In this document: in pieces, positions 11,456-36,020 of the stretch | Layout: every line of letters begins with the position of its first letter | How positions within the stretch are numbered: position 1 is the stretch's first letter | The notes under the pieces: generated by a model | The model's input: the letters and a program-made list of their open reading frames with translations, nothing else | Databases searched by the model: none | What the model was told of the DNA's origin: nothing | Made by a program: the position numbers and the translations under genes | NCBI GenBank assembly: GCA_039811685.1 | Contig: JBDHZC010000005.1 | Coordinates: 64,001 to 128,000 of the forward strand | DNA: 64,000 nucleotides | Origin: Armatimonadota bacterium | GTDB lineage: Bacteria; Armatimonadota; UBA5829; DSUL01 | Direction of reading: 5' to 3'

Positions 11456-12538
11456 ATGAAGATCACCGCTGTTGCCAAAGCTCTTCTTGTCTGTTGGTTG
11501 GCGGTCGACGCCGTCAGCCCTGCCGTCGCCGAGAGCTATCTATTCAGTGAAGAGACGAAGCACCCCCTGATCGTCCAGCGCCCGCTGACAGGCATACTGG
11601 TTGATGAGACTATGTACACTCTCTCGATCGCGCCAGAGTCGGGCTATGCGCCTGTACTGACGGAGACGCCGATGACCGCGCTTGCCGCGCCTGTCAGCTA
11701 CGCTCTCACCGCAGTAGCCGACGCCAGACGCCCGGCCTTTCCTGTTCACTGGTCGCTGCGTGGAGGTTTTGTTTGGACGTTGACTGAGTCCGATACGCCG
11801 CTGAGTGGCATAGTGCCGTTTTACTTCAGTCTTCAGCGGACTGCGCTGACTGGCCTGGAGCCGTGTGCCGCAGCCACCACGCATGTGGTCAAGCCCGGTA
11901 CTGTTGCCGATGTGTGGCACGCTCATCTGGCTAAGTGGGAGCGTGTCGCTTTCACTGAGCCCGAGACGCTGAACGACGCGACGCGGGCCGCCCGGCCTCC
12001 CGAGGTACCCTATCCTCTTGCCGCTATCGTGGTGACGGGACCGGTGACCGTCCAGCTTTTCCAGTTGACCGCCCCACATATGATGGGATGGGAGTACCGT
12101 GGGCCGGAGAAGCCTCGGCGGTGGAAAGCCGCGTTTGGGCCGGGGATGGCGCCGATCTCTCCCGAGAGTCAGCGGGGCGTGCCTCTCAAGGAGCGTACTC
12201 ACTCCGGCGACTGGTGGCGCATAGGGATGTTCGACGTTCCCTTCAGCGAGGCCTAGGAAGTGGCCAAGGTCGAAGGTACCTACTACGCCGTGACACAGAG
12301 CGGAGAGGTTTTCTCTCTGGGCGACCTTACCGGGAAAGTAAAGAAGATCGACATAGGAGGCAGACGTGTGACGGCGATTCTGACGCTGGAGGAGAGCGGA
12401 AAGGTGTATCTTTGTTCGCATGAGGACTACGCGCCGCTGTCGGATTCGCCTGGATTCAAATCCATTCCTGGAGGACACCCAGACGTCACCAGATCGGCAA
12501 CGCAGTGCCTGCTGGACCTGGCGAAGGCGTTGAACTAG
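11456..12538 (+). pseudogene. Family X exported protein interrupted by an in-frame TAG at 12254-12256
   Basis: ORFs 11456-12256 and 12260-12538 share a frame; PFSEA*EV aligns with PFAEPFEV of 15380-16381; AAGGAG RBS and signal peptide. Confidence 0.8.
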
Positions 12539-17884: not shown

Positions 17885-18775
17885 CTACACCCGCTTGCGG
17901 CGAACCACCCCTGCCAGTGATACCAGGCCGGCTCCCAGCGCGAGCAGGGAACCCGGCTCAGGCACCAGCGTCAGCGAGAAGTCATCAAAGTAGCCAGTCT
18001 GGCTTCCGAACTTTGAGTTCACTTCTATAACATTGTAGCCGTAGTTGAGCACGGAATTATGAGTCAGCGTCGGATTCACCATGTCGTCAATGTAGAACCA
18101 GACGTCGTTTGTGCCGTCGCCGAGCGCAGGCCCAACCACGATGCGCGCCTGATGCCAACCAACGCTTCTGCTGGTGCTGGTGTTGAACCATCCGTTAGGG
18201 CCGCCGTAGCCGTCGCTGGACCCGACAACGCGAGCCTGATACTTGCTGGTATCCCCGGTGCTTTGCGCTCCCAGTGAAAGCCGCTGGATCTTGCTGGCGC
18301 CGGCGTTCAGGCTGCCCGATCCAGGATAGTCAGTGCCGGAAGGCGCCGTGTTGTAATAGCCAAGAGCGACGTAGTCCTTGAAGTTGCCGTCACCCGCGCC
18401 ACCGACGTCGTAGAACCACCAGTCGAGCGTCAGATTCCCGGTAAAGACGTTGCCGCCGTTGAAGCGATAGGCGATATTCAACCAGTTCTGGTCAATGTCT
18501 GCCCCGCCTACGAAGGCTCCGCGAAGCATGTGGTCACCACTGTGGGGCGTGACGCCGCTGTCGGTCGAAACTACCTGTCCGTTTGGCGGGTTGGGGCCGA
18601 ACCAGGGGTTGCCGGACCCGTTTGGCGCCGAGTTCGCGCCACCGGGGGCATTCTTGTCGAGCGCGCCGATATTGGCGCCCTCAAATCCGTCTGTAAAGAC
18701 GGGAGCCGCCTGCGCCGTGAAAGCTGTGGCCACAACCAAAAGTCCCACCGCGCAGAGGAGCATTCCTCTTTTCAT
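17885..18775 (-). CDS. PEP-CTERM sorting-domain protein
   Basis: Signal peptide MKRGMLL; C-terminal VPEPGSLLALGAGLVSLAGVVRRKR; GAAGGAG RBS. Confidence 0.92.
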   Translation of the reverse strand: MKRGMLLCAVGLLVVATAFTAQAAPVFTDGFEGANIGALDKNAPGGANSAPNGSGNPWFGPNPPNGQVVSTDSGVTPHSGDHMLRGAFVGGADIDQNWLNIAYRFNGGNVFTGNLTLDWWFYDVGGAGDGNFKDYVALGYYNTAPSGTDYPGSGSLNAGASKIQRLSLGAQSTGDTSKYQARVVGSSDGYGGPNGWFNTSTSRSVGWHQARIVVGPALGDGTNDVWFYIDDMVNPTLTHNSVLNYGYNVIEVNSKFGSQTGYFDDFSLTLVPEPGSLLALGAGLVSLAGVVRRKRV

Positions 18776-32390: not shown

Positions 32391-33563
32391 ATGAACCTTA
32401 GACACTCCTCGCCATCACCTGAAGACGGAGACTATCTGCTGTGGCTTGGGCCAATTCTGGACGAATCCACTCTGCAGCGGTCTCCAGCCGCCAGCCCCGC
32501 AGCGGCTCGATGGCAATTCGGCCTGGTTCAGGCCCTGCAGGATCTGGGGCAGAGCGTGTTCAACATCGGCCATGTCCCCGAAAGGCTCTGGCCTAAGGGA
32601 CGCCTGTTTATGGGGCGAAGCGCCGGGCGGCTGCCTTCCGGAATAGCAGGGCGGATCGTCAGGTATGTTAACGCTCCTTTCATCCGGCGCGGGAGTCTGC
32701 ACCGGCGCTACCTGCACTCCATGGCCCGCGCTGTCAGAAAACGCGGCCGCCCTTCAGCCGTTGTCACCTACAACGCCTACCCTCATAACGCTGTCTGCGG
32801 CCTGCGCGCAGTGCGCGATCTCAACGTACCCTGGGTATGTATAGCCGCAGACGCTCCCGGTGAGACCGCAGAGCGCAAAGTGCACGACGCAATCCTGGCA
32901 CAGGCTTCCGGACGGGTGCTCCTGTCCTGGGGTCTCTACCGTGACACGCCAGGCGAACCCAGGCTGCATCTTGACGGAGGGATAGAGGAGATTCGTTTTG
33001 CCCCTTCTTCAATGGAGCCTCAGCCAACCCCGGTGATTCTCTACACAGGGGCGCTCACCAAATGGGGCGGCGTGAGCCTGTTGATAGACGCTTTTGCACT
33101 CATTCGCTCACAAAGCGCGGAATTGTGGATATGCGGTCACGGAAACGACGCACAGGTGCGCGAAGCGGCGCAGGCTAATCCCCGCATCAAGTGGCTGGGA
33201 ATGGTCTCAGAAGAGAAGCTGCGCGAGGTCTCTGAAGCAGCCAGCGTTTTTGTCAATCCACGCCCGCCGGAGATCAAAGACAACGCGATGAACTTTCCGT
33301 CCAAGGTGCTTGAGTATCTGTCTTACGGCCGGCCGGTTGTGAGCACGTGGACGGACGGCCTCAGCCCTGATTACCGCGATGCGCTCATCGTACTCCAAAG
33401 CAGCGATCCGGAAGCTCTGGCTTCGGAAATCGACACAGTGCTGAGCTGGGATACGGAGCGCCTGCGGCTTCAGGCGCAAAAGGCGCACAGTTTCCTGCAA
33501 CAGAAGCTGTGGTCTCGTCAAGCGGAGCGGTTTCTGAAGTGGATGGAGACGGTGCGTGTCTGA
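32391..33563 (+). CDS. Glycosyltransferase family 4
   Basis: LYTGAL and FPSKVLEYLSYGRPVVS. Confidence 0.88.
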   Translation: MNLRHSSPSPEDGDYLLWLGPILDESTLQRSPAASPAAARWQFGLVQALQDLGQSVFNIGHVPERLWPKGRLFMGRSAGRLPSGIAGRIVRYVNAPFIRRGSLHRRYLHSMARAVRKRGRPSAVVTYNAYPHNAVCGLRAVRDLNVPWVCIAADAPGETAERKVHDAILAQASGRVLLSWGLYRDTPGEPRLHLDGGIEEIRFAPSSMEPQPTPVILYTGALTKWGGVSLLIDAFALIRSQSAELWICGHGNDAQVREAAQANPRIKWLGMVSEEKLREVSEAASVFVNPRPPEIKDNAMNFPSKVLEYLSYGRPVVSTWTDGLSPDYRDALIVLQSSDPEALASEIDTVLSWDTERLRLQAQKAHSFLQQKLWSRQAERFLKWMETVRV

Positions 33564-34665
33564 GGAGCAGCAGATTGTCTTCTGGCAGAACACCCTCAGC
33601 ATTCACCAGTCCGCGCTGATTTCGGCTTTGGCGGAGCGGGCGCAGGTGACTCTGGTGGCTGAGGAGGATGTTTATCCGGAGCGCTCGGACATGGGCTGGT
33701 TCCGGCCGGATTTTGGAAAGGCGAAGGTAGTTGTCGCACCCGGCGACGCGCAACTTCTCGAGTTCGCCCGCATGAGCCAGGCCGCCCATATCTTCACCGG
33801 TATTGGCGCCTACCCAATGGTGAGCCGGGCCATGGCGTCGTGCGCGGAGGCGGGTGGCTGGATGGCGATGCAAAGCGAGCCGGCGGACTGGCGAGGGCCA
33901 CTTGCACTTGCGCGCCTGGCGCGAGGACGCCACTACGCCCGTCGCTACGGGCAGACGCTTTCACTCGCTCTGGCGATCGGTCATCTGGCGCGGCAGTGGT
34001 TCCGCAGGATTGGCCTGCCAGAGTCCAGGACGCGCCCTTTCGCCTATTTCACCCAGGGCCCTGAGTCTGGGGTGGACGTGGAAGAGCGCGACGAGGTGCG
34101 TCTGATAGTTGTGGCAAGTCTTGTCACCCGCAAAGGAGTGGATATTCTGCTGCGAGCGTTGAGCGACGTGCCGGGGCCATGGTTTCTGACAATCGTGGGC
34201 GACGGCCCTGAGCGCAATACTCTGGAGAAGCTGGCGCTGTCTCGTGGATTGGATGAAAAAGTGCGCTTTGCAGGCTCACTCGCCAATGACGAAGCGATGC
34301 GCTTGCTCTCGCAGAGTGATCTCTTGATCCTTCCCAGCCGGTGGGATGGCTGGGGCGCAGTGGTGAACGAGGCTTTGATGCGGGGAGTTCCGGTTGTCTG
34401 TAGCAACCGCTGTGGAGCCTCTGATCTGATAGTCTCCGCAGAGCTTGGCGCAGTCTACGCGTGGCAGTCGCAGAGCGCTCTTTCTCAGGAGCTTGCGCGG
34501 CGTGTGGCGCACGGCCCGGCAATCAGCAGCCAGCGGCAGAGGATTCGTCAGTGGGCTGAATGTATCAGCGGAGAGCGAGCGGCGCAATACGTCCTGGATC
34601 TGATCAGAAGCGCGCGTGACAGCTCCGAAGCCCCGCGCCCTCCGTGGCGGCCATTTGTGGACTGA
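33556..34665 (+). CDS. Glycosyltransferase family 4
   Basis: LPSRWDGWGAVVNEALMRGVPVV. Confidence 0.9.
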   Translation: MSEEQQIVFWQNTLSIHQSALISALAERAQVTLVAEEDVYPERSDMGWFRPDFGKAKVVVAPGDAQLLEFARMSQAAHIFTGIGAYPMVSRAMASCAEAGGWMAMQSEPADWRGPLALARLARGRHYARRYGQTLSLALAIGHLARQWFRRIGLPESRTRPFAYFTQGPESGVDVEERDEVRLIVVASLVTRKGVDILLRALSDVPGPWFLTIVGDGPERNTLEKLALSRGLDEKVRFAGSLANDEAMRLLSQSDLLILPSRWDGWGAVVNEALMRGVPVVCSNRCGASDLIVSAELGAVYAWQSQSALSQELARRVAHGPAISSQRQRIRQWAECISGERAAQYVLDLIRSARDSSEAPRPPWRPFVD

Positions 34666-34684: not shown

Positions 34685-34858
34685 TTAGAACGGGCTACCG
34701 GCGTCAACATCGGTAGGATGATCTATCAGGCGCTGGACGGCGGCTGTTCGCGTGGACGGGCTGGAAGCGCCTATCCCGCACGCGCTGGCGCTGCGGATTA
34801 TACAGAACGCCGGGAAAGCAACCAGCGCGACAAGAAACAAAACGATTATCAGCTTCAT
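34685..34858 (-). CDS. Small 57-aa putative membrane or secreted protein (below ORF-track cutoff)
   Basis: MKLIIVLFLVALVAFPAFCIIRSASACG...; AAGAGGAAG just upstream of the ATG. Confidence 0.55.
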   Translation of the reverse strand: MKLIIVLFLVALVAFPAFCIIRSASACGIGASSPSTRTAAVQRLIDHPTDVDAGSPF

Positions 34859-35003
34859 GGGAATCTTCCTCTTTCGTTTGCAGTAGCTTTGTCTATCTTA
34901 GGACCCGGCTACTGGAAAAAACAGAGCGCGCAGATTCCCCGCATTGGTACGGGTCTTTGCCTGTAGGGGGCAAAAAATCGGGCTTTTTGGGGCACTGGCA
35001 GGC

Positions 35004-35085
35004 AAAAAAATAGCCCGCGGAAGTAGCTTCAGCGGGCTCCAGAGAAAATATCTGACAGAAGGAGAAAAAGATATTTGGTTTCCAT
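35004..35085 (-). ncRNA. Candidate sigma54-dependent small RNA
   Basis: Follows a consensus sigma54 promoter; hairpin AAATATCT/AGATATTT with loop TTTTCTCCTTCTGTC; terminator AGCCCGC...GCGGGCT-ATTTTTTT. Confidence 0.55.
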
Positions 35086-35095
35086 CATTAATAAG

Positions 35096-35112
35096 TGCAA
35101 GAACCGTGCCAA
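35096..35112 (-). promoter_or_regulatory. sigma54 (RpoN) -24/-12 promoter
   Basis: Minus strand TTGGCACGGTTCTTGCA matches YTGGCACG-N4-TTGCW with GG-N10-GC spacing. Confidence 0.8.
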
Positions 35113-35270
35113 AAGCCAGATAGCGCTGAATTTTGTCCAGATTTTGCGTCAACAGGAGATGGGCAGTCTCTCCTGTGTCTCCTCTGCTGATGCCTGGAGC
35201 AGTGCTCCGGAGTGCGTCTGCGTCTGATATTCTGCTTGCGGATGACTGTCTCTGAAAGGATGCTGGGCCA

Positions 35271-36020
35271 TTGGGTCTTACAGCCGCTTTAGTCTGCAAA
35301 AATGAAGAGAAGAACATGGAGCGCGTCCTGCGCAGCGTGCAGTTTGCAGATCAAATCCTGGTTGTGGACTCCGGCTCGACGGACAAGACTCTGGAGATCG
35401 CGCGCAGGTTCACCGGGGACGTTATTGTGCGCGACTGGCCTGGCTTCTCGGCGCAGAAGAACTTCGCGTTGTCACAGGCCTCCGAGGAGTGGGTTTTATG
35501 CATGGACGCAGACGAGGAAGTCTCACCCGAGCTTGCCCTGGAGATTCAGGAGGTTGTAGCGGGCAGGCGTACCGGTTTTCGCTTCTACAACATGCCGCGC
35601 CTTACCCGTTTTGTGGACAGATGGATGCGCCACGGAGGATGGTATCCCGATCGGCAACTGCGCCTGCTTCAAAACGGAGCGGGGGAGTACAATGACCATC
35701 CGGTGCATGCGGCTATCACGCCAGACGAGCCCGTAGGCAAGCTGCAGGGAGACATCCTGCACTACAGCTTCGAATCCATTTCCGACTATGTGGACAGGAT
35801 GAATGGATACTCCTCCACTATGGCGCGAATGCTGCTGGAACGCACGCACCCTCCGCGCGTTGGACCGTTTGGTCTCGGACTGACGCTCGCGCGGAAATTT
35901 CTGGAAGTTTATCTCCTTAAGCGCGGCTTTTTGGACGGGGGCGACGGGTTTGTGGTGGCCTGCCTGGGAGCCTACAGCGTCTTTCTGCGGCAGGCGAAAG
36001 TCTGGCGGCCTGAAAAGTAA
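35271..36020 (+). CDS. Glycosyltransferase family 2, LPS-core beta-1,4-glucosyltransferase (WaaE/KdtX)-like
   Basis: VVDSGSTD, MDADE, HGGWYPD and RGFLDG motifs. Confidence 0.9.
   Translation: MGLTAALVCKNEEKNMERVLRSVQFADQILVVDSGSTDKTLEIARRFTGDVIVRDWPGFSAQKNFALSQASEEWVLCMDADEEVSPELALEIQEVVAGRRTGFRFYNMPRLTRFVDRWMRHGGWYPDRQLRLLQNGAGEYNDHPVHAAITPDEPVGKLQGDILHYSFESISDYVDRMNGYSSTMARMLLERTHPPRVGPFGLGLTLARKFLEVYLLKRGFLDGGDGFVVACLGAYSVFLRQAKVWRPEK

Follow-up and report, generated by a model that had tools for sequence, protein, structure and literature searches.

A stretch of 64,000 nucleotides from an Armatimonadota bacterium (assembly GCA_039811685.1, contig JBDHZC010000005.1, positions 64,001 to 128,000; hereafter the window) carries, on its minus strand between positions 35112 and 35004, an element that is very probably a real sigma-54-dependent small RNA gene. 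We consider it probable overall that this element belongs to a multi-copy family of base-pairing small RNAs of one Armatimonadota class, which is activated through sigma-54 and represses genes of PEP-CTERM proteins. The choice of targets is slightly less firm, as complementarity tips the balance only somewhat toward PEP-CTERM mRNAs being the main ones. The genome holding the window (G000) comprises 3.42 Mb in 15 contigs and is 97% complete.

The promoter of the element, TGGCACGGTTCTTGCA (35111–35096, minus), matches the sigma-54 consensus exactly, with GG at −24, GC at −12, and an extra T at 35112, and it stands precisely where a sequence-only reading of the window had placed it. Exact matches to TGGCAC-N5-TTGCW numbered one in the 64-kb window, compared with 0.09 expected, and at least one match arose in 9 of 100 shuffles; the same pattern with one mismatch showed no enrichment in the window (2 observed vs. 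2.65 expected). The strongest case against chance lies in the recurrence of promoter and seed in the genome and its relatives. A second sigma-54-like site with one mismatch, TGGCACGGCACTGGCT, occurs at 56981–56996 (minus), and a further consensus site lies 152 bases past the window end (G000:C5:128152).

Transcription is predicted to start at the GG at 35083–35082, 14–15 nt beyond the C of the −12 GC, and the purine block at this position coincides with the onset of conservation among 54 aligned copies (alignment A2). The RNA predicted from sequence and fold would extend for approximately 80 nt (35083–35004, minus), from this GG to a run of seven T. The GC-rich terminator and T run proposed earlier are present as an intrinsic terminator (35038–35004) with a G+C-rich helix at 35038–35012 followed by seven U at 35010–35004. 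Between start and terminator lies the seed, AUCUUUUUCUCCUUCUGUCA (35072–35053), 20 nt that are identical in the four consensus-promoter copies of the genome; its first 15 nt (35072–35058) are the core common to the class. The CUCCUU of the seed resembles the 3′ tail of 16S rRNA, which reads CACCUCCUUUCU.

An 8-bp stem displaying a CTCCTT loop had also been claimed, and both are in the sequence, the 5′ arm lying one base to the left of where that reading implied. This hairpin, AAAUAUCU/AGAUAUUU with a 15-nt loop (35076–35046), forms part of the minimum-energy fold of the window copy; its AU stem joins AAATATCT (35076–35069) to AGATATTT (35053–35046), and its loop, TTTTCTCCTTCTGTC (35068–35054), contains CUCCUU. 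The fold of the 84-nt stretch had an energy of −22.8 kcal/mol (z = −2.59), equalled by 2 of 200 shuffles, while folding from the GG at 35083–35082 gave a minimum energy of −21.6 kcal/mol with the stem included and the loop bases unpaired at probabilities of 0.7–0.97. The stem is therefore real in the window copy but not shared by the family, in which the conserved part is the anti-Shine-Dalgarno seed sequence: RNAalifold, applied to the 54 copies, returned no common structure around the seed, its sole output being a trivial helix of three pairs inside the promoter, and in the folds of most paralogues and orthologues, including most copies of the window's own subtype, the seed is left unpaired at the 5′ end. 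The features of an independent unit of the Hfq type are present (own promoter, U-run terminator, and an open reading frame (ORF) ruled out), as is a single-stranded seed, which is conserved, unpaired in the window copy, and complementary over 14–16 nt to sites spanning the Shine-Dalgarno sequence and the AUG.

Three further copies were identified in the same genome, on contigs C1, C2, and C3, giving four with consensus promoters in total. In each, a variable 12–15 nt separates the sigma-54 promoter from a purine-rich start, either GGAAACC or GAGAACC, behind which comes ATCTTTTTCTCCTTCTGTCA, 20 nt identical in all four. Beyond the seed the four diverge, and the terminator sequence differs in each; the seed AUCUUUUUCUCCUUC and the promoter are the parts that the copies have in common. 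A fifth, degenerate copy (G000:C1:768533–768600, minus) stands in tandem with the C1 copy, approximately 130 nt downstream of it. In this fifth copy the −24 and −12 elements are one base too close together and the seed is slightly altered (..CUCCUUUUGUCAG); hairpins and a terminator of its own are present as well. The copy may be in decay, or it may be transcribed by read-through. Across the family, a promoter and seed that are conserved, a 3′ half that varies freely, and indels of 2 and 3 bases together make up the pattern of paralogous base-pairing RNAs.

One genome per prokaryote species was scanned with the pattern TGGCAC-N5-TTGC-N(20-36)-TTTCTCCTTC, yielding 73 loci. Those with the look of small RNA genes, ending in terminators and frequently arranged in tandem, were nearly all from Armatimonadota, and the remainder resembled chance matches in coding DNA, except for two deltaproteobacterial loci. 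Pattern matches outside Armatimonadota were set aside, being mostly apparent coding DNA in which terminators were absent. At the two exceptions (L058 and L067, in Desulfobacterales and Deltaproteobacteria records of metagenome-assembled genomes), ..UUUUCUCCUUCC and a hairpin resembling a terminator come after a sigma-54 promoter; the appearance is that of similarly designed small RNAs in a different phylum, convergent or related. Eight loci (L035, L037, L046, L065, L068, L079, L094, and L098) were dropped by eye before alignment, and 54 distinct copies were aligned from the promoter through the seed. The promoter–seed distance was equal in all of them; GG, TTGC, A9, and the TTT of the seed were invariant, and the rest of TGGCAC and the CTCCTTC of the seed were at least 90% conserved.

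Conservation in relatives, which the sequence-only reading had proposed as a check, was found at two levels, with 4–5 paralogues in the genome itself and a wide distribution in the class. A sequence-only model of promoter plus seed (R1), built from the 54 distinct copies and applied with a match cut-off of E ≤ 1e-6, matched 40 of the 53 genomes of the window's class, with 1–5 copies each; tandem arrays of 2–3 copies with spacers of approximately 50–60 bp were common. For a 151-genome sample of the phylum, seed-reaching matches (model position of at least 59, E ≤ 1e-10) were obtained in 11 genomes, all of this class, while the genomes outside the class gave weak partial matches only, mostly to the promoter alone. 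The copies fall into three types. Type A, which occurs in the window's family, is approximately 80 nt long; its seed ends in ..CUUCUGUCA, and a small GUCA/UGAC hairpin is usual. Type B is approximately 110 nt long; after its seed, ..CUUCCUUAAAG, come a conserved GUGUUGUGG, a second hairpin, and the terminator. Type C, of approximately 70 nt, has its terminator directly after the seed. In type B (e.g., L013, L014, and L028), a further conserved block, UUUGUAC, was seen just beyond the terminator U run. An inverted repeat such as CAGGTA-N4-TACCTG was also observed across the melting region, in columns 19–34 of alignment A2 (about −12 to +3), in many copies and especially in type C; between −11 and +3, 57.7% of the positions were paired, compared with 28–39% with slid partner columns, a weak signal limited to a subset of copies, and the repeat could be an operator, a melting aid, or chance.

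The RNA also appears to be new, as the sequence-only reading had supposed. No Rfam family reached its gathering score in the window or in nine loci spanning all three subtypes, and weak matches to His_leader, ar14, and mmgR (E of 0.75–3.6) were discarded as far under their gathering scores. No description of this small RNA was found among the papers listed by searches of the literature library, and none of PEP-CTERM genes together with a small RNA; titles and abstracts likewise held no small RNA described for Armatimonadota.

Absence of rpoN had been named beforehand as grounds for giving up the reading; the gene is present in the genome (126.7 bits), and so is hfq (96.8 bits). The genome has one strong match to Sigma54_activat (235 bits), the other five scoring about 33 or less (next 33.4). 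This sole enhancer-binding protein is 399 aa long and consists of Response_reg, Sigma54_activat, and AAA_lid, with no helix-turn-helix (HTH) domain found by Pfam; its alignment to NtrC-type models breaks off at about position 385 of 445–463, and it reaches no curated cut-off. Adjoining it upstream is a gene for a kinase of 1,187 aa with four GAF domains, PAS, HisKA, and HATPase. An orthologue of the activator was read in 45 of the 53 class genomes (46 genomes with a match at E ≤ 1e-30, minus G015, whose sole match resembles a longer paralogue), and it is approximately 400–430 aa long and 60–79% identical in most. All eight class genomes without the orthologue were also without a small RNA match, and seven of the eight lacked rpoN above the cut-off.

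Many genomes of other families in the class have a second rpoN located 1–3 kb from a second, longer activator of approximately 460–500 aa (e.g., G031:C134, G012:C8, and G040:C93), which is to say two parallel sigma-54 systems. The window's family has solely the pair without a DNA-binding domain, and G015 appears to hold only the longer-activator/second-rpoN pair and is without the small RNA. A Sigma54_activat domain was absent from all 150 stop-to-stop frames of at least 150 aa at 25 loci, which covered approximately 1.5 kb on each side of the copies. The 200 nt upstream of the 54 copies, read by eye with no motif finder run, presented only A/T tracts and a loose ..TGCNGGG.. before −24. As the activator has no DNA-binding domain, an upstream site would be unnecessary, and such an activator also fits the short spacers between tandem copies.

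Candidate targets were sought among crude ORF calls, 4,088 of which had a Shine-Dalgarno sequence, and 47 of these (1.15%) were PEP-CTERM candidates assigned by a regular expression. Apart from the small RNA genes themselves, the longest stretches of the genome complementary to the seed measured 16, 15, 15, and 14 nt. All four cover the Shine-Dalgarno sequence and reach or abut the ATG, and all four products have a signal-peptide-like start and a PEP-CTERM tail. The window contains one predicted target site, GACAGAAGGAGAAAG (18791–18777, minus), which lies over the ribosome-binding site (RBS) one base before the ATG at 18775–18773. Its predicted duplex with the seed comprises 14 contiguous Watson-Crick pairs and one G-U and, at −24.3 kcal/mol, ranks second among the 4,088 sites. 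The gene behind it (18775–17888, minus) is one of the 47 candidates and encodes 296 aa with a signal-peptide-like N-terminus and the PEP-CTERM tail ..LVPEPGSLLALGAGLVSLAGVVRRKRV. Two AAGGAG-type sites had been singled out earlier as examples: that before 18775 is this second-best predicted target genome-wide, while that before 11456 has only eight contiguous bases (AGAAGGAG) in common with the seed complement, and the ORF translation at 11456 has no PEP-CTERM tail.

Across the genome, the mean duplex energy was −16.0 kcal/mol for the 47 PEP-CTERM genes vs. −10.7 kcal/mol for the rest (Mann-Whitney p = 1e-14), and PEP-CTERM genes accounted for 6 of the 10 best sites (about 0.1 expected) and 11 of the top 30. 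When relatives from four families were examined, 13 seed-complement sites lay at the start of ORFs of at least 149 aa, and 8 of them belonged to PEP-CTERM genes; in G004, G007, and G010, 30 PEP-CTERM genes had a mean of −13.9 kcal/mol vs. −7.5 kcal/mol for 67 neighboring ORFs. A co-variation of seed subtype (..CUUCUGUC vs. ..CUUCC) with the target flank (AGAAGGAG vs. GGAAGGAG) was considered and abandoned, as the sites were too few and both flanks occurred in G000.

The same data must be weighed against a general sigma-54-dependent small RNA whose CUCCUU core and U-run would dampen any mRNA having a strong GGAG and an A-rich spacer. The likeness of the seed to the 16S tail speaks for such a role, as do the presence of non-PEP genes among the top sites (e.g., that of a prepilin-like protein) and the observation that shuffled seeds keeping CUCC still favor PEP-CTERM sites. 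The real seed nevertheless outperformed all 40 control seeds in G000, in which CUCC was kept and the flanks were shuffled (top-30 PEP-CTERM count with a mean of 1.3 and a maximum of 8), and 199 of 200 in G004, G007, and G010, where a single shuffled seed was as good. Moreover, the four longest perfect matches (14–16 nt) all fall in PEP-CTERM genes, which constitute approximately 1% of the ORF set. We regard a general dampener as rather unlikely, though it is the most serious competitor.

A sponge RNA, in which the invariant U/C-rich block would titrate an RNA-binding protein, could account for a block conserved as sequence rather than structure, for multiple tandem copies like those of Csr/Rsm-type sponges, and for the second conserved block, GUGUUGUGG, of subtype B. 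However, each RNA has one block, CsrA-type GGA repeats are absent, and long perfect complements located precisely at start sites are not predicted for a protein-binding site, which leaves this explanation improbable. Still less credible is a cis-acting leader or attenuator of a downstream minus-strand gene, or a plain terminator for the neighbors. A small minus-strand ORF does start approximately 145 nt downstream (34858), and the Rfam match to His_leader reached 18.3 bits vs. a gathering score of 49; however, that match has E = 2.2, a strong terminator precedes any ORF, the copies adjoin unrelated genes (25 loci), and the units stand head to tail, each with its own promoter and terminator.

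A formal minus-strand ORF of 139 aa (35317–34898) crosses the element. Its 150-aa stop-to-stop frame had no Pfam match, and it is read as non-coding because the paralogues are offset from one another by indels of 2 and 3 bases and their 3′ halves are unrelated, in agreement with the earlier statement that there is no credible ORF. A protein-coding gene on either strand, for which one might cite this ORF, the overlapping plus-strand ORFs of 59 and 50 aa, the resemblance of plus-strand GAAGGAGAAAAAGAT(G) to an RBS with a start codon, and the antisense reading GAAGGAGAAAAAGATG in two paralogues, is scarcely tenable given that the antisense frames vary between 7 and 36 codons at five orthologous loci and between 24 and 50 in the paralogues without being conserved, and that the small RNA strand is the one with the conserved promoter and terminator.

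Consensus sigma-54 promoters were located upstream of 5 of the 47 PEP-CTERM genes vs. 9 of the 4,041 other ORFs, and one more PEP-CTERM gene has such a promoter 496 nt upstream. The PEP-CTERM genes with such promoters have mediocre seed complements, and of the ten PEP-CTERM genes whose duplex energies are −20 kcal/mol or below, nine lack a sigma-54 promoter. The sigma-54-driven and the seed-matched sets are hence mostly separate, from which we propose that the kinase and activator induce one set and repress the other via the small RNAs. The genome has three exosortase genes (EpsH-family). A consensus sigma-54 promoter (G000:C1:547704) was also noted upstream of a gene for a receiver plus PilZ protein (C1:547848–548849), which hints at a link between the regulon and cyclic di-GMP signaling.

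Several observations weigh against this account. The separation into two sets rests on 5–6 and 10 genes, and C14:1517 has both features. The gene sets are crude and include spurious ORFs, with PEP-CTERM membership assigned by a regular expression. The target signal is partly generic, because the RBSs of PEP-CTERM genes are strong and purine-rich and are favored even by shuffled seeds: the mean difference was −2.1 kcal/mol (G000) and −4.2 kcal/mol (relatives) for shuffled seeds vs. −5.3 and −6.4 kcal/mol for the real seed, so in the relatives two thirds of the effect already comes from shuffled seeds. At the probable G004 orthologue of the best target, the site (GAACGAGAAAAGGATG, L177) is much weaker, and site-level conservation is therefore not established; in G006, none of the matches were PEP-CTERM genes. 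Five genomes with an activator orthologue had no match to the small RNA model, and the co-occurrence counts overstate the support because related genomes are not independent. Metatranscriptome contigs from four runs of three studies, compared with 34700–35500, cover 34700–34880 and 35177–35500 only; the missing coverage between 34889 and 35158 is neutral on expression, and the start, end, and sigma-54 dependence of the RNA are inferred from its sequence.

The mechanism that we envisage begins with RNA polymerase and sigma-54, which would bind TGGCAC-N5-TTGCA, as the promoter sequence and the co-occurrence described above suggest. Activation would come from the sole enhancer-binding protein of the genome, presumably acting from solution since it has no DNA-binding domain, after phosphorylation by the adjacent cytoplasmic kinase with its four GAF domains and PAS. 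The resulting RNA of approximately 80 nt, with an intrinsic terminator and a U tail, would have a form suited to Hfq. Judging by complementarity, its seed AUCUUUUUCUCCUUC may pair with GAAGGAGAAAAAGAU(G) over the Shine-Dalgarno sequence and start codon, and such pairing would block ribosome entry. The preferred targets would be a subset of the approximately 47 genes of PEP-CTERM (exosortase-sorted) exported proteins, another subset of which has sigma-54 promoters; because the two subsets differ, the small RNAs could serve as the repressing arm of an otherwise activator-only regulon. Kinase activity would then lead to production of one set of surface proteins and shut-off of another. The complete scheme, a minimal sigma-54 circuit in which a soluble multi-GAF kinase, an activator without a DNA-binding domain, and 1–5 near-identical anti-Shine-Dalgarno small RNAs switch exosortase cargo, is put forward tentatively and goes further than we would wager at even odds.

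If true, the scheme would be the first described case of post-transcriptional control in PEP-CTERM/exosortase systems and the first small RNA regulon in a phylum that is widespread in soils, sludge, and sediments and is hard to culture. If the targeting is true, it would also provide an independent case in which small RNAs give an alternative sigma factor a repressing arm. The circuit is testable, with a kinase, a DNA-binding-free activator, sigma-54, redundant small RNAs, and exported proteins tied to exopolysaccharide and biofilm matrix as its components, and the invariant 15-nt seed together with the promoter makes a compact marker for finding it in metagenomes.

In the window, the element lies between two plus-strand glycosyltransferase genes assigned by Pfam matches, one convergent with the small RNA (Glycos_transf_1, 33556–34665; protein 18, L006:44–1168) and one divergent from its promoter (Glycos_transf_2, 35271–36020; protein 17, L006:1762–2523). 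The minus-strand ORF starting downstream of the small RNA terminator encodes 57 aa (34858–34685) with a hydrophobic N-terminus, MKLIIVLFLVALVAF... Metatranscriptome contigs from three runs of two studies stop at 34859–34880, just upstream of its ATG, and these ends may mark the end of a transcript. In other families the neighborhoods recur, the small RNA being flanked by a PPDK_N-domain gene and phosphofructokinase (L013, L014, L019, and L028) or by a Peptidase_C25 gene and a ParA-like ATPase (L015, L022, and L023).

Known systems resemble the one proposed here in parts. Qrr1-5 of Vibrio are sigma-54- and LuxO-dependent, Hfq-binding RNAs, and the present family is like them in consisting of paralogous small RNAs, each with a sigma-54 promoter and a terminator, that have a common pairing block and one response-regulator activator. 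The two show no sequence relation, as no Rfam family including Qrr reached its gathering score; the activator here scored 352.9 against a LuxO cut-off of 800 and has no DNA-binding domain, and the seed is an anti-Shine-Dalgarno block whose predicted targets are exported-protein genes. RybB and MicA (sigma-E) and OmrA/B of enterobacteria act as the repressing arm of an activator-only regulator through a conserved 5′ seed and remodel the envelope; they differ in sigma factor, phylum, and targets (outer-membrane porins there, PEP-CTERM proteins here), and there is no homology.

The ar14 or 'cuckoo' RNAs and CcsR1-4 of alpha-proteobacteria and LhrC1-5 of Listeria are multi-copy, often tandem RNAs with C/U-rich motifs that pair with Shine-Dalgarno sequences. 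Their motif occurs in two or more hairpin loops and they are not known to depend on sigma-54; the ar14 model (RF02344) scored 17.5 bits here vs. a gathering score of 58.8 (E = 0.75). Receiver plus AAA+ activators without a C-terminal HTH are represented by FlgR of Helicobacter and CtcC of Chlamydia, each the sole or main activator of a small sigma-54 regulon. Those regulons are flagellar or developmental, unlike that proposed here, and the FlgR model gave 330.9 vs. a cut-off of 750.

In Desulfovibrio vulgaris, sigma-54 promoters drive ORF-less small RNAs; according to the portions of the two reports available, three of the four non-coding RNAs adjoin their own DNA-binding activators and the fourth is a DVU1419 target (PMC3333781, PMC4641369). 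As far as those portions go, the D. vulgaris RNAs have defined upstream sites, different promoters, and another phylum as host. That the present element is one of the four was dropped, as the true family members are Armatimonadota.

A precedent on the target side is the association of sigma-54 and PrsK/PrsR with PEP-CTERM genes in Proteobacteria. In the part of the defining paper available, the motifs are limited to Proteobacteria, PrsR binds an upstream motif, and PEP-CTERM control outside Proteobacteria is left open (Haft 2006, PMC1569441). The activator described here differs from PrsR (TIGR02915) in scoring 386.9 vs. a cut-off of 502.6 bits, in a match that ends at model position 374 of 445, and in having no HTH, and the kinase, unlike PrsK, is a soluble 4xGAF-PAS protein. 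That part of the account of PrsK/PrsR has no small RNA layer of the kind proposed here (PMC1569441). To the same extent, the two systems have in common sigma-54 promoters before single-gene PEP-CTERM operons, a kinase/activator pair, and exosortase genes.

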